Below are positions 5,373-55,576 of a stretch of DNA of 64,000 nucleotides, piece by piece. Under the pieces are notes generated by a model. That model ran no database searches. It was not told the DNA's origin and was given only the letters and a program-made list of their open reading frames with translations. The stretch's first letter is position 1, and each line of letters starts with the position of its first letter. The DNA is from Alphaproteobacteria bacterium. GTDB taxonomy: Bacteria; Pseudomonadota; Alphaproteobacteria; MPNO01; UBA830. The stretch spans positions 150,053 through 214,052 of the forward strand of contig JAYPPO010000001.1 in assembly GCA_038131485.1 (NCBI GenBank), written 5' to 3'. The position numbers and the translations under genes are program-made.

Positions 5373-6446
5373 ATGGCCGTGATAGCTGTGCAGGACGACA
5401 AGATCCTGCGCTTTCTCGAGGTCATTCTGGACCCGCGAGTCTCGGCAGAGCGCGTCGAGGCCTTTCGCGATTACCTGTCGTTCGACTTGCCCGATGCCGA
5501 CGGCTGGTTCCAGGAACAGCGGCGCATCGCTGCGGCGATCTGCCCGTCGACGATACATCTATGCGAGGATGAGGCGGCGATGCGAGCCGCTCTTCCCGAG
5601 GCCGACGCCGTGGTCAGCGAAAGCTTTCATATCGGCGCCGACGATCTCGCGGCCGCGCCCAGGCTGAAATTCGTCCAGAAGTTCGGCATCGATGCGCGCA
5701 ACATCGATATCGCCGCAGTCGAGAAGGCGGGCCTCACCTTCCGCCGGCTGCGCCGCCGGGTGAACGGCACAGTCGCCGAGCATGCGATCCTGCTGATGAT
5801 GGCGGTCGGGCGGAAGCTGGTCGAGACCGACGGCGCGCTCGACTTCGCCTCGCTCCAGGCACTCGGGTACCATCCGAAAAAATTCCATCCCGACCATGTC
5901 GCCGGAGCTAACTGGGCGCGGGTTAACGGGCTGATCGCGCTCCAAGACGCGACGCTGGGCGCGCTTGGGCTCGGCGAGGTCGGCCGCGAAGTCGCCCAGC
6001 GCGCGAAGGCGATGGGCATGCGAATTGTCTATTACCAGCGTTCGCGCCTGCCAGAGGAAATCGAGCGCGAATTCGATGCAGAATACGTCTGCTATGAGGC
6101 ACTACTGGAACAGTCCGATTTCATCAGTGTGCATCTGCCGCTAAACGGCAGTACCCGTGGCATGATCGACCGCGAGGCGTTCGGCAGGATGAAGGAGGGC
6201 GCGATTATCGCGAACATTTCGCGCGCGCACATCATCGACCGCGACGCGCTGATAGGGGCGCTCGACTCGGGTCGTCTCGGCGGCGCAGGACTCGACGTGC
6301 ACTACGAGGAGCCAGGCGATCTGGACGAGCCGCTGAAGAACTACAGGAACGTCGTCCTGAGCCCCCATATCGCGGTCGCCGAACGGCGCCACAATATGGC
6401 CGACACGGCCGAACTCGTGCGCAATCTGGCCGAGATTCTGGGGTAG
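5373..6446 (+). CDS. D-isomer-specific 2-hydroxyacid dehydrogenase family protein (NAD-binding)
   Basis: Rossmann motif GALGLGEVGREVA plus the catalytic region ISRAHIIDRDAL...GAGLDV...SPHIA. Confidence 0.85.
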   Translation: MAVIAVQDDKILRFLEVILDPRVSAERVEAFRDYLSFDLPDADGWFQEQRRIAAAICPSTIHLCEDEAAMRAALPEADAVVSESFHIGADDLAAAPRLKFVQKFGIDARNIDIAAVEKAGLTFRRLRRRVNGTVAEHAILLMMAVGRKLVETDGALDFASLQALGYHPKKFHPDHVAGANWARVNGLIALQDATLGALGLGEVGREVAQRAKAMGMRIVYYQRSRLPEEIEREFDAEYVCYEALLEQSDFISVHLPLNGSTRGMIDREAFGRMKEGAIIANISRAHIIDRDALIGALDSGRLGGAGLDVHYEEPGDLDEPLKNYRNVVLSPHIAVAERRHNMADTAELVRNLAEILG

Positions 6447-43202: not shown

Positions 43203-43230
43203 CGGCGGGCGAGGTTTCCCGCGCCCGCCG
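43203..43230 (-). terminator. Probable terminator of the selenoprotein operon
   Basis: 9-bp GC stem CGGCGGGCG/CGCCCGCCG with a 10-nt loop, 23 nt after the redoxin stop. On the minus strand it is followed by UAUCUUUAU. Confidence 0.5.
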
Positions 43231-43253: not shown

Positions 43254-43724
43254 TTATTTGCGCGATTCGTAGAAATTCACGAGTTTCACGACGTCTTCGG
43301 CCTGAATACGGCCGAGCGGTCCATCGGCGTAGCTCGACGCGACGACCTTGTTGTCTTCGCCCAGGATGAATTCGGATGGCTGGATGATCTGGCGGCGGTC
43401 TTCCCACCAAGAGCCCAACGCGTCTGCGATGTCGCGGGTAACTTCGAAGCCGACCGGGAAATTGACCTCGTTGGTTACTTCCTTCGCCTTGTCTTCCGGA
43501 TCGATGCTCGCCGCGACGACCGAAATCCCGAGCTTGTCTAGCTCAGCCTTCTGTTCTGCGAAGCCGACCAACTGCCGGCGGCAGTAGGGTCACCAATGAC
43601 CCCGATAGAAGAGGATGACCTTGTATTTAGAATTCAGGTCACCCGGAAGGTCCAGCGTGCCCCCGCCGACGGTCTTGATCGTCAAGCTGGGAAACGCGGC
43701 GCCAATCCCAAGTTTATCGGACAT
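43254..43724 (-). CDS. AhpC/TSA-type thiol-disulfide oxidoreductase (Prx-like redoxin) selenoprotein; in-frame TGA (43592..43590) read as Sec, motif W-U-P-Y-C
   Basis: ATG 43724 behind a perfect AAGGAGAA RBS. 44 sense codons (…KVILFYRGHW), then TGA, then PYCRRQLVGFAEQ... continue in the same frame into track ORF 43254..43571. The TGA replaces the first Cys of the redoxin WCPYC motif. Confidence 0.75.
43566..43591 (-). promoter_or_regulatory. Candidate SECIS hairpin of the redoxin selenoprotein
   Basis: mRNA GACC-CU-ACUGCC-GCC-GGCAGU-U-GGUC: 4-bp and 6-bp stems beginning at the GA of the UGA. The apical loop is small and slightly closer to the UGA than in textbook bacterial SECIS. Confidence 0.45.
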
Positions 43725-43837: not shown

Positions 43838-44965
43838 TTACTCTGCGGTGTTGGAGGCCGCGTCCTCCTCTAACGCCATCTTTTGCGAGGCGAACGCGTC
43901 GATGCCGATTTCGGCGCGAAGAACGGCGGTGACCGCCGCCTTGTCCTCTTCGAGCGGCTGGCCGGTCGAATCGGCGACGCGGTCGATGGCGTTGAACAGG
44001 GCAGCGACGGCGGCCGAATCGACTAGCGCGTCCCCGCCCATCGCATCGACGATCGCCTGACGCGCGCGGATCAGCCTGTCGACGTCGGGGTCGAGCACCG
44101 CCTCTGCGAACTCGATCAGTAGCGCGCCTTGTTCGACGCCCGTGTCGCCCGCGCCTGACCCTTCAGTGATGGCGTGGAAGTTGAGGGTCTCACCAGCATG
44201 TTCGCTGCCCGCACGGAGCAGTACCGAATGGCTGGTCGTTCAATAGGTACACTGGTTGAGGGCGGAGATCCGGGCCGCGATCAGTTCGATCTGCAGGTGG
44301 CTGATCGCGCGGAATTCCTTCGTGAAGTCGCGCATCTGCGAGCCCGCTAGATACTGCGCGGCGACGACGTCGAAGAAGCTGCGCGCCTCGTCCGGCACTA
44401 GCGTAAGCGCGCGCCGAATGTTGGCCTCTGGACCGACGAAATAGTCTGCCTCGTTAGGTCCGAACTCGTCCCACGCGATATTTGGCGCCCACGCCTGATG
44501 CTGGCGCGCCTCCGTTGGCCGGTAGTGCGAAGGCTCGCCCCCTTGCGCGTCGGGCAGGGCGCGCGGTGGGATGCCCATGCCGTGCGCGAAGGTGTCGATC
44601 GCGATCGTGTGCGCAACGACGCTGACGATCTCGACGAAATGGGTCTCCGGGATCGCCGCGATGGTGCAGTCGTACCAGCTTCTGGTTAGGCGGCCCGGGT
44701 CGGCGACAATAAGGTGGATCATGTCGACCCAGTCACGTGGAAGATCGGTTCCGGCATCGTGCGAGTGTGTCACCAGGAAGGGCGAGAGCGCGTCGCGGAC
44801 TGCGACGCAGGTCGTGCAGCCCCGGGCATGGCGCGTTTCCGCCATTACCTCCACGCGCTGCTCGCCGGTCAGCCAGGCGCCCGGTTTCGACAGCCGGTCC
44901 CAGGCGCGAGCATGCGACTCGCTCAGCTCGTCGCGGATCTTATAGGGGGAGTCGGTGTAGTCCAT
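43838..44965 (-). CDS. Two-repeat AhpD/CMD-fold (alkylhydroperoxidase-like) selenoprotein; in-frame TGA (44242..44240) read as Sec, motif C-T-Y-U-T-T-S-H
   Basis: Track ORFs 44240..45037 and 43838..44098 share one frame and are separated only by the TGA plus 47 sense codons. Start taken at ATG 44965 (MDYTDSPYK) because 45037 would overlap tRNA-Sec. The N-terminal repeat carries an ordinary CTTC pair. Confidence 0.75.
44193..44235 (-). promoter_or_regulatory. Candidate SECIS hairpin of the AhpD-like selenoprotein
   Basis: Starts 7 nt after the UGA. Stems CCAGC/GCUGG, UUCG/CGAA and CUGCU/GGCAG, with a 3-nt bulge, a small internal loop and a 7-nt apical loop CCGUGCG. Confidence 0.6.
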
Positions 44966-45008
44966 AGTGGCTCTTTCCCGTCTGGTCGGCGTTCGTGCGC
45001 CGGGGATT

Positions 45009-45104
45009 TGGCGGAAAAGAGTGGGAGTCGAACCCACCAGGGACGTCTAACGCCCCTCACCGGTTTTGAAGACCGGGCGCCCCACCGGGGTGCGATTCTC
45101 TTCC
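45009..45104 (-). tRNA. selC: tRNA-Sec (anticodon UCA)
   Basis: 96 nt: GGAAGAGA...TCTTTTCC-G-CCA gives an 8-bp acceptor stem. Anticodon loop CUUCAAA (UCA), long variable arm GGTGAGGGGCGTTAGACGTCCCTGG, T-arm GTGGGTTCGACTCCCAC, encoded CCA. Confidence 0.9.
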
Positions 45105-45200: not shown

Positions 45201-46115
45201 GTGACTGACCGTCCTTTTATCCTCGAAGCCTATCGCGGCTATGGTGCGCGCGGGCGCGCTGTATTGCGCGGGCGTATCTACCGCGAACCGCGATGCCGGT
45301 TCGCCTATTTACGCCGTCTCGCGCGGCGGGGGATCGGCGATATCGCGGTGACGGCACTTCTTGGAGGCGTCGAGGCGCGGGCCCGCACCGATCGGGACGG
45401 CTATTTCCGGCTCGCCTGGGACGCGCTTGATGACGGTCTCGAAGGTTGGCGTGACGTGTCGCTGAGCGCCGCCGGGACGACGGCGGCGGGTGAGTTACAC
45501 TTGCGCGGCGCTGCCAGCCGGTTCGTCGTCATCAGCGACATCGACGACACGGTGATGGTCACCGGCGTTGCCAACAAAGCGGCGATGTATTGGCGGCTGT
45601 TTCTGCAATCGCCCGACGCTCGCCGGGTATTTCCCGGCGCGCCGGCTTTCTATCGCGCGCTCCGCGACGGGACGGGGGGCGAGGACAATCCCGTCCTTTT
45701 CGTCTCGCGCGCGCCCTGGAGCATTTACGACGCATTGTCCCGGTTCTTCGCGAGTCAGGGAGTGGCAGAGCGGCCGATCCTGCTGATGCGCGAATGGGGG
45801 CTGACGCTTCAGAGCCCGATGCCGCGACGTGCGCGTGCCCACAAGCGCGAGCTGATCGACGAAATCCTCTCGGTCTACGGCAATGTTGATTGCGTGCTAA
45901 TTGGCGACAACGGCCAGCTAGATCCCGCCCTCTATGCTGATATCGCGGCGTCAAATCCTGGGATAATTCGCGCTGTCTATATCCGCGACGTCGCCGGGAC
46001 TGGCAGGGCCGATCCGCTGGAGAAACTGGATGCGTTGATTGTTAGCGCGGAAACGACCGACATGCTGCGGCACGCGGCTGCAGTGGGGCTGATCGCAGAC
46101 GTCACTCCCCGTTGA
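45201..46115 (+). CDS. App1-family (DUF2183) phosphatase-like protein
   Basis: GTG start; the VISDIDDTV and IGDNGQLDP motifs fit the HAD-like App1 catalytic domain. The 3' end overlaps selB convergently by 14 nt. Confidence 0.7.
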   Translation: MTDRPFILEAYRGYGARGRAVLRGRIYREPRCRFAYLRRLARRGIGDIAVTALLGGVEARARTDRDGYFRLAWDALDDGLEGWRDVSLSAAGTTAAGELHLRGAASRFVVISDIDDTVMVTGVANKAAMYWRLFLQSPDARRVFPGAPAFYRALRDGTGGEDNPVLFVSRAPWSIYDALSRFFASQGVAERPILLMREWGLTLQSPMPRRARAHKRELIDEILSVYGNVDCVLIGDNGQLDPALYADIAASNPGIIRAVYIRDVAGTGRADPLEKLDALIVSAETTDMLRHAAAVGLIADVTPR

Positions 46116-48027
46116 ACGCGTCGGCCGCTGGCCGGATGACCTCGTGGCCGTCGCCTATCCGCCGTGTGAATTTCACCTTGTCGAAAAATTCCAGCACCTC
46201 GATCGCAAGATTGCGGCCGATGTCGGAGGCGTCCCGAAAGGCGGCGGCAGTGACCATGCCGTCGGGCGCGTCGTCGGCGATCCGCTCAGTGATCTCGCCC
46301 AGCAAGCGCAGCGACGCCGGCGGGTAGAAGCGGTTCTTGGAGACTCGTACGACCATGCCGTGCCTTCCGGCGCGAACAAGCAGCGATTCCACCTTGCGGG
46401 GCTCGCTGCCGATTTCGCGGGCGATCTCGACGACAACGGGCGGCCGCAAGCCGCCGTCGAGCAAAATCGGTTCGATCTTGCGCCAGTTCGCGGCATCCGG
46501 GCCCTGCAGCGCCGGCCGATGGTCGGGCAGGCGGACGCCCATGCCTTCCTTAACGATGGCACCTTCGCGCACCAGTTCTGCGGCGATGGCGACCGCGGCA
46601 TCCGCGGGCAGTCGAATCCCAGTGCCGGCGAGGATCCGATTTTCGCCCGGGCCGACAACGTCCGGCGATTTTCTGTGGAAGGCGGCGAGGCCCTCCAGCA
46701 CGGCTATGCGAAGTTTCGCCCAGCGTGTTTCGGAGAAGGCAAGCGGCGCGCCTGGGACGCTGACGCGTTTCATTGCCACCAACTCTGCCATTGCTCCGAT
46801 GTCGTCCGGCGTCAGATTGCGCGCGGCGGCGAACCGGTCGAGATCGAGTCCATTGGGCGCAGCGTCGAGCAGGGCCGATAGCGCGGTCGCGTCGTCCGCT
46901 TCCTCCATCGCCGACAAGAAGGCGAGACGGCTGAGGTGCGCGCGGCCCCGCACCGGAGGGAAGATATCGACTACGCGTCCGCCGCCCACGGTGCGCTGTG
47001 CCGACTGGTCGCGGACGATCAGCCCGTCGCCGTGCACCGCCCCGACCGGTACGTCGAGCACAAGCTGGACCAACGCATCCTCGCCTGGCTGCACCGCGGC
47101 CCCTTCGAGTATCGCAACGCGCCCGGTCGTCTCCATCGCGCCGAGATGGACGTGCACCGGCGTCCAGTGCGTGAGCGGCTGCGCTTCCGACCCGAGCACG
47201 CGAAGCCGGACGTCGATCTTGCGGGCGGGGGGCGGAACGTTGCCAGTAACGACCCAGTCGCCGCGCTTGATCAGATCCTTGTCGAGCTCGGTGCCCGCGA
47301 GGTTGAGGGCGCAGCGCTGGCCCGCCTGGCCGCGCTCGGCTTGGGCGTTCTGCGCATGGACGCCTCGGACGCGCACCTCCATGCCAGCGCCGGCGATACG
47401 GGCTGGCTCGCCGGGTGAGATTTTCCCTGAAAACGCGGTCCCCGTGACGACCAGTCCCGCGCCGACGACGTTGAAGCGCCGGTCGATGGCGAGCCGAAAA
47501 TTGCCGGCCGTCGGGCGCCGTGGCAGGTCGCGCGCGCTCGCGATGAGGTGTTCCTTGAGCGCCTCGATTCCGTCGCCGGTCATGGCGGACAGCGGGAATA
47601 TCGGCGCGTCTTCGAGCGTGGTACCCGCCAGCAGCAGATCTATCTCTTCCGCCACCTCGACGGCGCGCTCTTCCGGCACCCGGTCGATTTTAGTCAGGGC
47701 CACCGCGCCGCGAGAGACGCCAAGTAGGTCAAGAATCGCAAGATGTTCTTGCGTCTGCGGCATCGGACCGTCGTCCGCCGCGACGATGAACAGCACGAAA
47801 TCGATGCCCGCGACACCGCACAGCATGTTGCGAATGAACTTTTCATGGCCGGGCACGTCGATGAAACCGATGGTCTCCGCCCCTTCGAGCGGTAGATACG
47901 CGAAGCCAAGATCAATGGTGAGGCTGCGCTTCTTCTCTTCCGGCAGCCGGTCTGTATCCACGCCCGTCAGCGCCTTGATCAGCAGCGTCTTGCCGTGATC
48001 GACGTGGCCCGCCGTGGCAATGATCAT
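46102..48027 (-). CDS. selB: Selenocysteine-specific translation elongation factor SelB
   Basis: MIIATAGHVDHGKTLLIKALTG...DRLPEEKKRSLTIDLGF GTPase domain plus long C-terminal winged-helix region; 641 aa. ATGA overlap with selA. Confidence 0.9.
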   Translation of the reverse strand: MIIATAGHVDHGKTLLIKALTGVDTDRLPEEKKRSLTIDLGFAYLPLEGAETIGFIDVPGHEKFIRNMLCGVAGIDFVLFIVAADDGPMPQTQEHLAILDLLGVSRGAVALTKIDRVPEERAVEVAEEIDLLLAGTTLEDAPIFPLSAMTGDGIEALKEHLIASARDLPRRPTAGNFRLAIDRRFNVVGAGLVVTGTAFSGKISPGEPARIAGAGMEVRVRGVHAQNAQAERGQAGQRCALNLAGTELDKDLIKRGDWVVTGNVPPPARKIDVRLRVLGSEAQPLTHWTPVHVHLGAMETTGRVAILEGAAVQPGEDALVQLVLDVPVGAVHGDGLIVRDQSAQRTVGGGRVVDIFPPVRGRAHLSRLAFLSAMEEADDATALSALLDAAPNGLDLDRFAAARNLTPDDIGAMAELVAMKRVSVPGAPLAFSETRWAKLRIAVLEGLAAFHRKSPDVVGPGENRILAGTGIRLPADAAVAIAAELVREGAIVKEGMGVRLPDHRPALQGPDAANWRKIEPILLDGGLRPPVVVEIAREIGSEPRKVESLLVRAGRHGMVVRVSKNRFYPPASLRLLGEITERIADDAPDGMVTAAAFRDASDIGRNLAIEVLEFFDKVKFTRRIGDGHEVIRPAADAFNGE

Positions 48028-49436
48028 TTGGCCGGAGAGAGTTTGAAAAGCTGAGCCGCAAACCCGGCCTCGTCGTCGAGGCAGCGAAGATCGAGGACGA
48101 AGCTGTCACCCTGGATACGGCCGATCACAGGAACAGGCAGGAAGCGGAACGCGCTAGCCAGCCCGTTCAGCGAGGAACCAGCCGACTTCGTTTTTTTCGG
48201 TACAACGGCGAGCCCGGCGCTCGGTATGCGCTGGGTCGGGAGCGCGCCGGAGCCGATCTGGCTGTCGCAGTCGGCGACCTCGACAACTCCGAAGTCGCCA
48301 ACGGCTTGCTGCAACGCCGGCTGCAGCCGAGAGGCCGCGGCGCGTATGTCTTCGACCGGCCGGGCGAGCCAGCGCAGCGTGGGGACCCGCGCGACCAGGC
48401 GGTCTGGATTGGCGTAGAGCCGGAGGGTGGCCGACAGCGCCGCGATCGTCATCTTGTCGCAGCGGAGTGCACGTTTCATCGGGTTCTTTTTGAGTTTCGC
48501 GACGATGTCTTTCCTGCCGACGATGATGCCGCATTGCGGTCCGCCCAGCAGCTTGTCGCCCGAGAACGTCACGACGTCCGCACCGTTCTTCATCGCCTCC
48601 ATCGGCGTGGGCTCGTGCGGGAGCCCAAAGCGTTCGAGATTGACAAGCGTGCCGCTGCCGAGGTCGATGGCGAAGGGCAGGCCGTTGTCGTGGCAAAGCT
48701 TCGCAAGCTTGGATTCCGGCACTTCGGCCGTGAAACCCTCGACAACATAGTTGCTGGTATGAACCTTCATGATCATGCCGGTCCTGCGCCCGATCGCCTC
48801 GGCATAGTCCTTCAAGTGCGTCCGATTGGTGGTACCGACTTCGATCAGCTTACAGCCCGACCGCGCCATGATGTCCGGCATGCGGAAGGAGCCGCCGATC
48901 TCGATCAGCTCGCCGCGCGACATCGGCACTTCCTTTCGGCTGGCGAGGCTGTTGAGAACCAGCATAACTGCAGCGGCGTTGTTGTTGACGATGGTGGCTG
49001 CTTCCGCGCCCGTCATCCGGGAGAGGATGCTCTCGATATGCTCGTCGCGGTCTCCGCGTTTTCCGGGCTCGATACGGTACTCGAGGTTGCTCGCGCCGCG
49101 CGCGGCTTCGGCGACGGCGTTGATCGCCTCTTCAGGAAGCGCGGCGCGGCCGAGATTCGTGTGAAGGACCGTGCCGGTCAGGTTGTAGACCGGTCGAAGC
49201 GAAGGGGTCGCCCGACGGTCGAGCTCCTCGGCAACGGCGGCGGCTATGGCGGGAATTTCCATAGCCGGGCCTCCCTCGTTGCGCAGCGTCTCGCGAAGCT
49301 TCGACAGCACTTGCCTGACGGCGTCGGTAGTTTCGCTCCGACCGAACTCCTCTGCGAGCGGCGCCATTTCGGCGTCGCCTAGCAGGCGGTCGACGCTCGG
49401 GAGCGCTGCAAGCGGGTTTCTGGTGTCGTCCGGCAT
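48024..49436 (-). CDS. selA: L-seryl-tRNA(Sec) selenium transferase SelA
   Basis: 470 aa; VNNNAAAV, KVHTSNY and the PLP-lysine block FSGDKLLGGPQCG are present. Confidence 0.9.
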   Translation of the reverse strand: MPDDTRNPLAALPSVDRLLGDAEMAPLAEEFGRSETTDAVRQVLSKLRETLRNEGGPAMEIPAIAAAVAEELDRRATPSLRPVYNLTGTVLHTNLGRAALPEEAINAVAEAARGASNLEYRIEPGKRGDRDEHIESILSRMTGAEAATIVNNNAAAVMLVLNSLASRKEVPMSRGELIEIGGSFRMPDIMARSGCKLIEVGTTNRTHLKDYAEAIGRRTGMIMKVHTSNYVVEGFTAEVPESKLAKLCHDNGLPFAIDLGSGTLVNLERFGLPHEPTPMEAMKNGADVVTFSGDKLLGGPQCGIIVGRKDIVAKLKKNPMKRALRCDKMTIAALSATLRLYANPDRLVARVPTLRWLARPVEDIRAAASRLQPALQQAVGDFGVVEVADCDSQIGSGALPTQRIPSAGLAVVPKKTKSAGSSLNGLASAFRFLPVPVIGRIQGDSFVLDLRCLDDEAGFAAQLFKLSPAK

Positions 49437-51199: not shown

Positions 51200-52804
<1,605 letters not shown>

Positions 52805-52943
52805 GTCATATTCCTGAGGATCGGTGCGGCGCGAATATAGGGTGGGTTGGGCAGAATTTACAGGGAAAGCTCCAGTAGTCGATTTGTCACTTCCTGCGCG
52901 CTACGATAACTGGAGACAAACGGCACGGTGCGAGGGACACGCC

Positions 52944-54254
52944 ATGGATACGCTCACCGCCACCAAGCTCGACTACCAGTCCGGTTTTGGTAACGAATTC
53001 GCCACGGAGGCGCTGCCCGGCGCGCTGCCGGAAGGGCGGAATTCGCCGCAAAAAGCGCCCTACGGGCTCTATGCCGAACTGATCAGCGGCACGGCTTTCA
53101 CGCAGCCGCGGGGCGAAAATCTGCGCACCTGGGTCTACAGGATGCGTCCGTCGGCGACGCACGGTGCATTCCGCCGGATCGATGCCGGGTTGTGGCGCAC
53201 CCCGCCGTTTTCCGGGGGTGTTCTCACGCCTCAGCAGAATCGTTGGGACCCGTTCCCGATCCCCAAGGGCGACGTCGACTTCATCGACGGGATGAGCACG
53301 ATCGGTGGCAACGGCGATGCCAACGCGCAGGCAGGTATCGGCATCCACGTCTATACGGCGAATAAGTCGATGACCGGGAGGTTCTTGTATAACGCCGACG
53401 GCGAGATGTTGTTCGTCCCGCAGCAGGGACGGCTGCGGGTAGTGACCGAGTTGGGCGTCCTTGAGGCGGCACCGAACGAGATCGCTGTCGTCCCACGCGG
53501 GGTCAAGTTCCGCGCCGAGCTTCCCGACGGGCCATCGCGAGGCTATGTCTGCGAAAACTACGGAGCGGCGCTGCGTCTTCCCGACCTCGGGCCGATCGGC
53601 TCGAACGGGCTCGCCAATCCGCGCGACTTCCGTGCCCCGGTCGCCGGATTTGAGGACAAGGAGGGTGACTTCGAGCTGGTCGCCAAGTTCGGCGGCGGGC
53701 TGTGGGCGGCTGAAATGGGCCATTCACCGCTTGACGTTGTCGCGTGGCACGGCAATCTCGCACCATACAAGTACAACCTCGCCAACTTCATGGCGATCGG
53801 CACGGTCAGCTTCGATCACCCGGATCCGTCAATCTATACGGTGCTCACCTCGCCGTCGGGACCGCTCGGGCTCGCCAACGTCGATTTCGTGATTTTCCCG
53901 CCGCGCTGGCTCGTAGGCGAGGATACGTTCCGGCCGCCGTGGTATCATCGCAACTTCATGAGCGAATTCATGGGGCTCGTACGAGGCCAGTACGATGCCA
54001 AGCCAGAAGGTTTCGTACCCGGTGGCGCCAGCCTGCACAACGCGATGTCGGCGCACGGACCCGACGTGGATGCTTTCGAGAACGCGACGAAAGCCGATCT
54101 AAAGCCCGTGAAGCTGGACGAAACGATGGCATTCATGTTCGAGACCCGCTACCCGATCCGGCTGACGGACTGGGCGGCCAATAGCCCCCAGATGCAGCAA
54201 GGCTATTCGGCGTGCTGGGACGGGCTTGAGAAGAAATTCACGGGGAAAAAATAA
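52944..54254 (+). CDS. hmgA: Homogentisate 1,2-dioxygenase
   Basis: ATG 52944; [26 protein letters not shown] and later blocks are diagnostic. The track extension to 52824 is unsupported. Confidence 0.9.
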
Positions 54255-55576
54255 TGCCGACATTGAACGACACCCACGATCCGGCCCTGGAGAGCTGGGT
54301 CGAAGGGGCCGATGCGCACAGCGCGGATTTTCCGGTCCAGAACCTGCCTTTCGGCGTGTTCGTCCATCCCGACACCGGCGCGCCGACGGTCGGCGTTGCC
54401 ATCGGAGGCTCGATCCTCGACGTCTCGGCCGCCTATGCGAAGGGCTTGATAGGTGGCGCTGCGGACGATGCGGCGCAGGCTTGCGGCGGGCCGACGTTGA
54501 ACGCGCTGATGTCGCTCGGTGGGCAACACTGGTCGGCGCTGCGGGCGGCCCTCTCGCTGTTGCTGCGGGCTGATACCGAGGCCGGCGAGCAGGCCCAAGA
54601 AGTTGCGGGAGAAATTCTCGTCCCGATGGCCGGCACTAAGCTGCTGCTGCCGGTCCAGATCGGCGACTACACGGATTTCTACGCCTCGATCTTCCACGCG
54701 ACCAACGTCGGCAAGATGCTGCGGCCGGATAATCCTCTGATGCCGAACTACAAGCACATTCCGATTGCCTATCACGGTCGTGCGTCGTCAATCGTCGTCA
54801 GCGGCGAACCGTGCAAGCGCCCTGTGGGCCAGTTAAAGGCACCCGATGCCGAAGCGCCGTCCTTCGGCGCGTCAATGGCATTCGACTACGAGACCGAGAT
54901 TGCTTTCTATGTTGGGCCCGGCAACCCGCTCGGCCAGCCCGTGGCGTTAGAAGAGGCGGAGGACCACATCTTCGGGCTCTGTATCCTCAACGACTGGTCG
55001 GCACGCGACATCCAGGCGTGGGAATACCAGCCGCTCGGCCCGTTCCTTGCCAAGAGCTTCGCCTCGCACCTCTCGCCCTGGGTAGTGACGATGGAGGCCC
55101 TTGCGCCGTTCCGCTGTGGTGCCTACCGCCGCCCGGAGGGCGATCCGTCACCGCTGCCTTACCTGACGTCTGCCGCCAACGAGTCAGAAGGTGGATTCGA
55201 CGTTCAAATCGAGGTCTCCATCGCGTCCGCGAAGATGCGCGCCGAGGGGATGGATCCCGAGGTCCTCGCGGTCACCAATATGCAGCATCTCTACTGGACT
55301 ATCTTCCAGATGCTAACTCACCACACGTCCAACGGTTGCAACCTGCGCCCCGGAGACATGATGGGGACGGGTACTATTTCCGGGCCCGACGAGGACTCGC
55401 TCGGCTCGATTCTCGAGATCACCAAACGCGGCACGAGTCCTGTGAAGCTGCCGACCGGCGAGGAACGAAAGTTCCTCGGCGACGGCGACGAGCTGACCAT
55501 GCGCGCCTGGTGCGAGAAGGACGGCGCACGGGCCATCGGCTTCGGCGCTTGCAGCGCCGTGATCGAGCCCGCCTGA
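54254..55576 (+). CDS. fahA: Fumarylacetoacetase
   Basis: The start overlaps the hmgA stop (TAATG). SWV...DFPVQNLPFGVF N-terminal domain plus FAH core; 440 aa. Confidence 0.9.
   Translation: MPTLNDTHDPALESWVEGADAHSADFPVQNLPFGVFVHPDTGAPTVGVAIGGSILDVSAAYAKGLIGGAADDAAQACGGPTLNALMSLGGQHWSALRAALSLLLRADTEAGEQAQEVAGEILVPMAGTKLLLPVQIGDYTDFYASIFHATNVGKMLRPDNPLMPNYKHIPIAYHGRASSIVVSGEPCKRPVGQLKAPDAEAPSFGASMAFDYETEIAFYVGPGNPLGQPVALEEAEDHIFGLCILNDWSARDIQAWEYQPLGPFLAKSFASHLSPWVVTMEALAPFRCGAYRRPEGDPSPLPYLTSAANESEGGFDVQIEVSIASAKMRAEGMDPEVLAVTNMQHLYWTIFQMLTHHTSNGCNLRPGDMMGTGTISGPDEDSLGSILEITKRGTSPVKLPTGEERKFLGDGDELTMRAWCEKDGARAIGFGACSAVIEPA

Follow-up and report, generated by a model that had tools for sequence, protein, structure and literature searches.

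An AhpD-like selenoprotein gene of the NF041238 family, usually annotated as two fragments, beside tRNA-Sec and selAB in an alphaproteobacterium

Background

An AhpD-like selenoprotein family with a CxxU motif, referred to as 'AhpD-like protein (COG2128), CxxU' or 'AhpD-like 1', was described by Zhang and Gladyshev from the Sargasso Sea (2005) and the GOS (2008) metagenomes, where 27 and 299 members with the CxxU motif were reported, respectively. It is the same family as NCBIfam NF041238 ('AhpD_rel_CFYUT', alkylhydroperoxidase-related (seleno)protein), a curated equivalog model that comprises both Sec and Cys forms. Co-location of Prx-like and AhpD-like selenoprotein genes was also previously reported from metagenomes, and the GOS paper has one read that pairs Prx-like 1 with 'AhpD-like 2'. 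In the published work on this pairing we found no biochemical test of it.

Two groups of Cys-containing proteins are related to the family. The single-domain 'peroxidase-related enzymes' (TIGR01926; 6k40, 3c1l, 2pfx, 2oyo and 2prr) are proteins of ~190 residues with Cys only and without an N-terminal domain. AhpD of Mycobacterium tuberculosis (TIGR00777; 1knc and 1gu9) has the all-helical AhpD/CMD core and, with AhpC, forms the mycobacterial AhpC/AhpD couple. The proton relay residues are E118/C130/H132/C133/H137 in M. tuberculosis AhpD and E36/C48/Y50/C51/H55 in PA0269 (PMC3141380).

Here we analyzed a locus in a 64-kb stretch of alphaproteobacterial DNA, referred to below as the window, for which an earlier note, made from the sequence alone, had proposed a selenoprotein of this type.

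Results

One reading frame interrupted by a single TGA

The earlier note had joined two minus-strand ORFs, 44240..45037 and 43838..44098, into one gene. Translation confirmed that both are in a common frame, with one TGA (44242..44240) and 141 nt (47 sense codons) free of stops between them. From 44965 to 43838 the frame has 375 codons followed by a TAA stop, and the TGA, preceded by ISALNQCTY and followed by TTSHSVLLRAG, is its sole internal stop. The ATG at 44965 is consistent with the homologs as a start, while the GTG at 45037 given in the ORF list would run into the tRNA-Sec gene.

43838..44965, minus strand: complete CDS of the AhpD-like selenoprotein, 375 residues including Sec242, ending in TAA
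44240..44242, minus strand: UGA read as Sec242, in the motif C239-T-Y-U242-T-T-S-H246

The profile check that the note had suggested for the 375-aa read-through protein returned NF041238 end to end, with 443.2 bits (cutoff 175; E = 7.6e-133) and with residues 10-360 aligned to model positions 1-357 of 357, the model itself spanning the TGA junction. The C-x-Y-[U/C]-T motif of the family is present as C-T-Y-U-T; the model name has C-F-Y-U-T, with Phe at that position in most of the Cys forms. Other than this motif letter and the tRNA-Sec/selAB neighbourhood, no substantive difference from NF041238 was found. It is thus very likely that 44965..43838 on the minus strand is one gene, encoding a two-domain, all-helical AhpD-like selenoprotein of the NF041238 family. 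Members of the family were found on marine and soil Alphaproteobacteria-type contigs; a megablast search against plasmids gave no match.

Conservation of the TGA and of the downstream part

The related genes, which come from 91 loci in genomes and metagenomes and span identities of 50-95%, share the TGA at this column without exception (90 of 90). Where the related loci were translated beyond the TGA, the frame was open and conserved, with no shift, as far as the shared C-terminus. Full-length homologs that are more distantly related, 372-402 aa long (P0174, P0176, P0193, P0231, P0137 and P0161), have Cys at the Sec column and are continuous across it, the first four of them with C-x-Y-C in the form C-[FHA]-Y-C. 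Downstream of the SECIS region dN/dS was 0.1-0.5, similar to the N-terminal part, and the 133 codons 3′ of the TGA are under purifying selection. These values, together with the match of this part to solved AhpD-like structures (see below), bear out the claim that the downstream codons are coding.

On the other hand, the top 120 annotated homologs among the matches listed end at the TGA column at ~245 aa, and the databases list C-terminal 'orphan' proteins of 80-150 aa as entries of their own, as the earlier note had predicted for standard gene callers. These records would agree with a true stop at the TGA, with a 241-residue protein and an independent small gene after it, as such loci are annotated in the databases. 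We consider this highly improbable, since a protein of 241 residues would stop just one residue short of the catalytic position, lacking the relay His and half of the AhpD fold, and since the 47 codons from the TGA to the first possible start are conserved, synonymous sites included. The open, unshifted frame of the related loci, the continuous Cys homologs and the curated model that spans the junction argue against it as well. The note had named homologs uniformly ending at the TGA as evidence against its reading; at the DNA level the relatives do carry the TGA, but their frame stays open beyond it.

A TGA could also have arisen from a Cys codon, TGC or TGT, by a single-base change that inactivated the gene, and additional internal stops are indeed found in one related locus (L009). 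However, a pseudogene would hardly keep its TGA at one column in every one of the 90 relatives, and a dN/dS near 1 downstream was looked for and not seen, selection being purifying on both sides of the TGA. With a conserved RNA hairpin following the TGA and dedicated Sec machinery adjoining the gene, we give inactivation practically no credence and retain the selenoprotein reading.

Active site and C-terminal AhpD-like domain

44228..44287, minus strand: active-site segment with the AhpD-type proton relay, Glu227, Cys239, Tyr241, Sec242 and His246

The five relay columns are invariant in our alignment (A4). The relay Glu-(12)-Cys-x-[His/Tyr]-Cys-x-x-x-His is present with Sec as the second Cys, and its spacing is identical to that of PA0269 and M. 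tuberculosis AhpD (PMC3141380). The C-terminal half (residues ~172-340) matched solved AhpD-like proteins, 6k40 (1.3e-13), 3c1l (2.4e-11), 2pfx (3.4e-11) and 2oyo (3.7e-10) among them. These TIGR01926-type proteins are the closest structures to this half (E = 1e-13 to 6e-8 over the group), and their C-x-Y-C-x-x-x-H motif aligns with that of the window protein. The TGA therefore stands, as had been proposed, at the second Cys of C-x-x-C-x-x-x-H, where both the Cys homologs and the motifs of the solved proteins align.

The window protein is, however, neither a TIGR01926 protein (29.9 bits vs a cutoff of 81.8) nor an ortholog of M. tuberculosis AhpD (TIGR00777, 13.6 bits vs a cutoff of 191.95). 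Although it shares the all-helical core and the relay with the latter, it has Sec in place of the second Cys and an extra N-terminal domain of ~165 residues with a C-x-x-C of its own. The Pfam CMD model PF02627 matched only residues 221-251 and below its gathering score (20.3 vs 23 bits); because of this sub-threshold match, membership of the AhpD/CMD superfamily is assigned here from the profile similarity to solved structures and from the proton relay.

N-terminal domain

44807..44818, minus strand: N-terminal C50-T-T-C53 pair, invariant in alignments A4 and A6

The earlier note had seen in the N-terminal half a Cys pair, R-G-C-T-T-C-V-A-V, and a second CMD-like repeat. The pair is present, and an alignment of 18 full-length sequences shows no variation at C50 or C53, whereas the signals for a repeat were weak. 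Comparison of the N-terminal and C-terminal halves by hhalign aligned the C-x-x-C to the C-x-x-U, with a probability of 6.6% and P = 0.0055. The best PDB sequence match of the domain was the AhpD-like protein 2oyo at an insignificant E = 0.36, and a Pfam scan of the domain gave no match. An AF2 model of residues 1-150 was confident and all-helical, while in a model of residues 1-241 the truncated C-terminal domain was poorly predicted. The best Foldseek matches were to Sestrin2, which is a double AhpD-like fold, with probabilities of 0.95 and 0.90, TM scores of 0.50 and 0.44, and E = 0.2, which is not significant.

A conserved hairpin after the UGA

44192..44236, minus strand: SECIS-type hairpin within the CDS, in the window's own three-segment form (RNAfold)
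44205..44221, minus strand: apical stem-loop CUGCUC-CGUGC-GGGCAG, conserved family-wide, presumed SelB-binding site

Over the ~20 codons that follow the TGA, identity at synonymous codons reaches 0.85-0.97, compared with 0.51 gene-wide, and this jump points to an embedded SECIS hairpin. In the window sequence, RNAfold paired 44236..44231 with 44197..44192, 44228..44225 with 44204..44201, and 44221..44216 with 44210..44205. The hairpin begins 4 nt 3′ of the UGA. It has three stem segments, the number given in the earlier note, but the apical loop is the 5-nt CGUGC rather than 7 nt, as the closing C-G pair had been omitted.

The apical core GCUCCGUG-G-GC does not vary across 65 distinct sequences. 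In the apical helix 95.4% of cells are paired, and two of the pairs switch between U-A and U-G; double changes that would be fully compensatory were not seen among these sequences, since the helix hardly varies. We examined the three-stem hairpin as a family-wide structure and rejected it: over the family as a whole, pairing holds in only 55% of cells for the lower stem and 66% for the middle one, and RNAalifold retains only a 5-bp apical helix. The SECIS claimed for this gene thus holds as a conserved hairpin after the UGA, of which the apical stem-loop is the only one of three segments kept family-wide. SelB is presumed to bind at this stem-loop.

In a subgroup with CAGCUGCUC...GAGCGC, a bulged-U alternative appeared, by eye, to fit.

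The stability of the hairpin is unremarkable (z = -0.03), as 102 of 200 shuffled sequences fold at least as well in RNAfold; the above-chance signal is its conservation and not its thermodynamics. A scan of Rfam at the gathering threshold found tRNA-Sec only and no SECIS family. The bSECISearch criteria call for 16-37 nt from the UGA to the loop and for a G early in the loop. By these, the distance at our locus, where the apical loop begins 24 nt 3′ of the UGA, is consistent with bacterial SECIS elements.

Selenocysteine machinery next to the gene

45009..45104, minus strand: tRNA-Sec, anticodon UCA (ARAGORN), ending 43 nt before the ATG at 44965
46102..48027, minus strand: selB, Sec-specific elongation factor (TIGR00475, 432 bits; PF09107, PF25461)
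48024..49436, minus strand: selA, selenocysteine synthase (TIGR00474, 588 bits; PF03841)

The tRNA-Sec also matched Rfam RF01852 at 45013..45104 with 76.2 bits (gathering score 47), and selB includes the C-terminal winged-helix domain. The arrangement described earlier, with tRNA-Sec 43 bp before the start and selB and selA within 5 kb, was confirmed, all on the same strand as the gene. The position directly behind tRNA-Sec and near selAB is found in this genome and in a close relative (L010). In nine other genome loci (L001-L009) there is no tRNA-Sec within 6 kb of the homologs, thus the linkage is lineage-specific.

A tblastn search of the 64-kb window for selD, using an approximate E. coli SelD query, gave nothing better than E = 2. 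As tRNA-Sec, selA and selB are intact, it is unlikely that selD is missing from the organism. The search result would also fit a UGA recoded by near-cognate decoding as another amino acid, Trp or Cys, instead of Sec. We hold this to be very unlikely: of the other 10 genes called with confidence in the window, 8 terminate normally at TGA, which argues against codon reassignment, and intact Sec machinery is adjacent. In addition, the codon falls at the redox-active Cys of the motif, which is Cys in the homologs, and it is followed by the conserved hairpin at a suitable distance. Selenocysteine is therefore kept as the reading of the UGA.

A second selenoprotein gene downstream

[quoted passage not shown]
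43565..43592, minus strand: candidate SECIS of the Prx-like gene, apical stem CUGCC/GGCAG, starting at the UGA (RNAfold)
43205..43222, minus strand: terminator-like GC-rich hairpin with a T-rich tail (pattern scan; consensus match only)

Translation of the Prx-like gene placed its TGA (43592..43590) in the motif G-H-W-U-P-Y-C, and PF00578 matched its C-terminal fragment from profile position 46. It is similar to the described Prx-like selenoproteins ('Prx-like 1', PF00578, UxxC), with a U-x-x-C motif and the AhpC/TSA fold. The apical stem of its candidate SECIS is conserved in 29 distinct sequences, one of its pairs occurring as C-G, U-G or U-A. The terminator-like hairpin, found by its consensus pattern after the Prx-like stop codon, likely marks the end of the operon.

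The TGA-containing Prx-like gene recurs in 46 related loci, at full length in 42 and in part, at a contig end, in 4, and it is directly downstream in all of them but one, L076, where it lies on the opposite strand ~2.3 kb away. The partnership is not obligatory, as the Prx-like gene is absent from L094, a relative of 57% identity. No conserved reductase gene was found near the pair in L093 or L094. Unlike the GOS read, the Prx-like gene is paired here with the COG2128-type family, and repeatedly so; in this respect the 46 loci extend a known observation in number only.

Discussion

By analogy with standard bacterial Sec decoding, the UGA at 44242..44240 would be decoded as selenocysteine, with the in-CDS hairpin recruiting SelB that carries Sec-tRNA-Sec. 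Sec242 would replace the second, nucleophilic Cys of the AhpD C-x-x-C inside the conserved proton relay. From this position of Sec242 and the conserved relay, the protein is most likely a selenol/thiol oxidoreductase.

The gene is probably co-transcribed with the Prx-like gene. As with the mycobacterial AhpC/AhpD couple, the gene adjoins one of the peroxiredoxin family, but its neighbour here encodes a small Prx-like protein with U-x-x-C, unlike a typical 2-Cys AhpC. By analogy with that couple, the AhpD-like protein probably re-reduces its Prx-like partner or itself acts on hydroperoxides. A broader model can be offered only tentatively, and we think it rather less likely to hold than to fail. 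Perhaps the two proteins form a self-contained, all-selenium AhpC/AhpD-like couple for peroxide detoxification of aerobic marine and soil Alphaproteobacteria, in which the N-terminal C-x-x-C, as a divergent second AhpD fold, would pass electrons from a donor to the C-x-x-U, the operon being co-transcribed with tRNA-Sec in this lineage.

Descriptions of the family go back to 2005 and NCBI has a model specific to it, and the split gene is a routine mis-annotation and no discovery. As the CxxU motif, the SECIS and the clustering with Prx-like selenoprotein genes were all previously published too, the scientific addition made here is little. The practical value is in annotation. Public records nearly always split the gene into a 'hypothetical protein' of ~245 residues and an orphan of 80-120 residues, and the neighbouring Prx-like gene is split likewise; joining the fragments returns two redox enzymes to the antioxidant inventory of the organism.

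Reading frame and gene layout

Translation of the minus strand from 44965 to 43838 gave a single frame of 375 sense positions and a TAA stop, whose sole internal stop is a TGA at 44242..44240, within ...ISALNQ-C-T-Y-[TGA]-T-T-S-H-SVLLRAG.... The ORFs 44240..45037(-) and 43838..44098(-) lie in this same frame with 47 stop-free codons in between, and thus form one gene, as the earlier note had proposed. The start at ATG 44965 is backed by the N-termini of homologs and by the NCBIfam alignment; the mechanical ORF start, GTG 45037 (44966..45037, minus strand), would run 29 nt into the tRNA-Sec gene. The selenocysteine (Sec) genes that had been reported nearby were confirmed on the same strand, upstream of this AhpD-like gene:

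45009..45104, minus strand: tRNA-Sec (anticodon UCA), the only tRNA of the window (ARAGORN; Rfam RF01852, 76 bits), 43 nt upstream of the ATG
46102..48027, minus strand: selB, equivalog-level score
48024..49436, minus strand: selA, equivalog-level score

No selD was found within the 64-kb window, and the Rfam scan of the window at the gathering threshold gave no match besides RF01852. The arrangement of tRNA-Sec immediately upstream, with selAB close by, is confined to this genome and L010 (GCA_038116875.1), its relative at 95% identity; nine other genomes (L001–L009) carry no tRNA-Sec within 6 kb of the AhpD-like gene.

Genome-wide reassignment of TGA is excluded, since TGA is the ordinary stop of 8 of the 10 other confident genes among the 12 examined in the window. 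Both selenoprotein genes, the AhpD-like gene and a downstream Prx-like gene, end with TAA, which is consistent with avoidance of a second UGA in selenoprotein mRNAs.

Elsewhere in the window, an ORF with a long N-terminal extension may encode an RdhA-like enzyme in an apparently aerobic alphaproteobacterial context, and prfC (release factor 3) adjoins a homogentisate-pathway pair (51200..55576), a synteny common to the window and L010:

35280..37538, plus strand: 752-residue ORF, TIGR02486 (reductive dehalogenase) at 162.8 bits against a cutoff of 160.35, residues 416–621
52824..54254: hmgA
54254..55576: fumarylacetoacetase

Conservation across the TGA

The 120 top-ranking database proteins, each of about 241–250 residues, span 64% of the query. 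Naively this is a refutation of read-through, but their length is a gene-caller artefact: annotated homologs end at the TGA, whereas in the DNA of seven intact full-length loci, translated directly, the TGA occupies the same column and the frame is open and conserved to a common C-terminus. The seven are among nine genome loci, from MAGs of marine Alphaproteobacteria, Rhodospirillaceae and Paracoccaceae, at which tblastn matched residues 1–375 or up to the contig limit. In L002 the gene reaches the contig end before completion. L009 (8..988), a low-quality copy on a 2.9-kb contig, has three further in-frame stops beside the Sec TGA and is either decaying or poorly assembled.

With 80 metagenome loci added at 50–76% identity, TGA was found at the Sec column in 90 of 90 recovered genes, a count that tests the codon in close relatives and not the whole superfamily, as the retrieval pattern fixed ...NQCTY and left the following codon free. 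The region 3′ of the SECIS is coding, with dN/dS of 0.1–0.5 against eight relatives, comparable to the N-terminal part. When the C-terminal 133 residues served as query, an exhaustive HMMER search returned 798 matches, mostly orphans of 80–150 residues, and among them four full-length homologs (P0174, P0176, P0193 and P0231; 372–402 residues) carry C-[F/H]-Y-C at the Sec column, so that Cys at the aligned position, sought by the earlier note, does occur.

On one metagenome contig, two tandem AhpD-like Sec genes (L036:1196 and L036:2359) precede a Prx-like Sec gene; both copies keep the TGA and the conserved hairpin, and the selenoprotein gene thus appears to have been locally duplicated. Low-complexity insertions in N-terminal domain loops were observed in L004 (GGGD repeats, ~6300..6360) and in L090 and L091 (P-N-T-[GV] repeats), the remainder of the protein being intact.

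RNA element after the UGA

RNAfold reproduced, in the window, the three-segment hairpin that had been described from the sequence (44236..44192, minus strand, with a 5-nt loop CGUGC), although its energy is no better than that of shuffled sequence (z = −0.03). The evidence for the hairpin is conservation, not folding energy. Across nine relatives, identical amino-acid pairs share their codon in 51% of cases gene-wide and in 85–97% over the ~20 codons that follow the TGA, and the core GCUCCGUG-G-GC does not vary among 65 distinct sequences. In the apical helix (44221..44216 / 44210..44205), 95.4% of cells are paired, with U-A/U-G alternation at two pairs, against just 55% in the lower and 66% in the middle stem, and RNAalifold retains the apical 5-bp helix only. 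Because the apical helix hardly varies, it shows no double compensatory changes in the 65 sequences, so that the case for the structure is built on synonymous-site constraint and position rather than covariation. Thus, the functional unit shared family-wide is the apical stem-loop alone, its loop starting 24 nt after the UGA, and the lower stems are lineage-variable.

Family identity and active site

The read-through protein, with Cys in place of Sec, matched NCBIfam NF041238 ('AhpD_rel_CFYUT', 'alkylhydroperoxidase-related (seleno)protein') with E = 7.6e-133 (443 bits, cutoff 175). Residues 10–360 align to the full curated model (357 positions), which therefore extends across the UGA. The Pfam CMD model covered residues 221–251 only, at 20.3 bits, under its threshold of 23. 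Orthology to mycobacterial AhpD was rejected (TIGR00777, 13.6 bits; cutoff 192).

A profile of 18 full-length relatives matched solved AhpD-like 'peroxidase-related' proteins across residues ~172–340 (6k40, E 1.3e-13; 3c1l, E 2.4e-11; 2pfx, E 3.4e-11; 2oyo, E 3.7e-10). Each of the four alignments sets the Sec column against the second Cys of C-x-Y-C-x-x-x-H, where the TGA had been placed from the sequence. E227, C239, Y241, U242 and H246 are all invariant among relatives, with the same spacing as the relays of Mycobacterium tuberculosis AhpD (Glu118, Cys130, His132, Cys133, His137) and Pseudomonas aeruginosa PA0269 (Glu36, Cys48, Tyr50, Cys51, His55) (PMC3141380). From this spacing, Sec242 would take the place of the second C-x-x-C cysteine, and the protein is predicted to be an AhpD-type selenol/thiol oxidoreductase.

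That the N-terminal half is a second CMD-like repeat, as had also been suggested, is plausible but unproven; every positive test leans the same way, but the scores are weak. When the two halves were aligned to each other with hhalign, C50-x-x-C53 fell on C239-x-x-U242 with the next helices in order (probability 6.6%, P = 0.0055), and the best PDB sequence match of the N-domain profile was again AhpD-like 2oyo (E = 0.36). The AlphaFold model of residues 1–150 is confident and all-helical (pLDDT 84–97), and Foldseek placed it closest to two chains of Sestrin2, a double AhpD-like fold (E = 0.2, probability 0.95 and 0.90). A Pfam scan of this half gave no match.

The selenoprotein reading is correct and was well argued, and the gene belongs to a known, curated family in a known genomic arrangement. 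A 2005 Sargasso Sea study introduced 'AhpD-like protein (COG2128), CxxU' as a new selenoprotein family, with 27 sequences and a predicted SECIS drawn (PMC1088965). In the GOS selenoproteome 'AhpD-like 1' was the fourth most abundant family (299 Sec forms, 902 Cys homologs), and one read had neighbouring Prx-like 1 and AhpD-like 2 genes (PMC2398784). The family is also present in bacterial genome surveys (PMC1794560) and in BSepDB, and a 2026 review notes that metagenomic studies have uncovered Prx-like and AhpD-like selenoprotein genes clustered in operons (PMC13188914). The value of the finding is an annotation fix, its scientific novelty being low: in L010, of the same synteny, the AhpD-like gene is annotated as 241 + 86 residues, exactly the truncated protein and orphan foreseen in the earlier note, and the Prx-like gene as 44 + 105 residues.

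The Prx-like gene and the probable operon

The second split gene, preceded by an AAGGAG ribosome-binding site, starts 113 nt beyond the AhpD-like gene:

43724..43254, minus strand: Prx-like selenoprotein gene, 156 residues, ATG 43724 to TAA 43256..43254, with TGA at 43592..43590
43222..43205, minus strand: terminator-like hairpin after the Prx-like gene

Its TGA lies within F-Y-R-G-H-W-U-P-Y-C. The protein has an AhpC/TSA fold and matched no NCBIfam equivalog specific to it. The TGA-containing gene was found in 46 related loci (42 full-length and 4 partial matches), directly downstream of the AhpD-like gene in all except L076, and is missing in the 57%-identical relative L094. A conserved hairpin of its own begins at the UGA; one of the hairpin's pairs is C-G, U-G or U-A.

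This adjacency, together with the terminator-like hairpin, indicates that tRNA-Sec, the AhpD-like Sec gene and the Prx-like Sec gene likely form one transcription unit. If the AhpC/AhpD couple is a guide, the AhpD-like protein would plausibly recycle the Prx-like protein.
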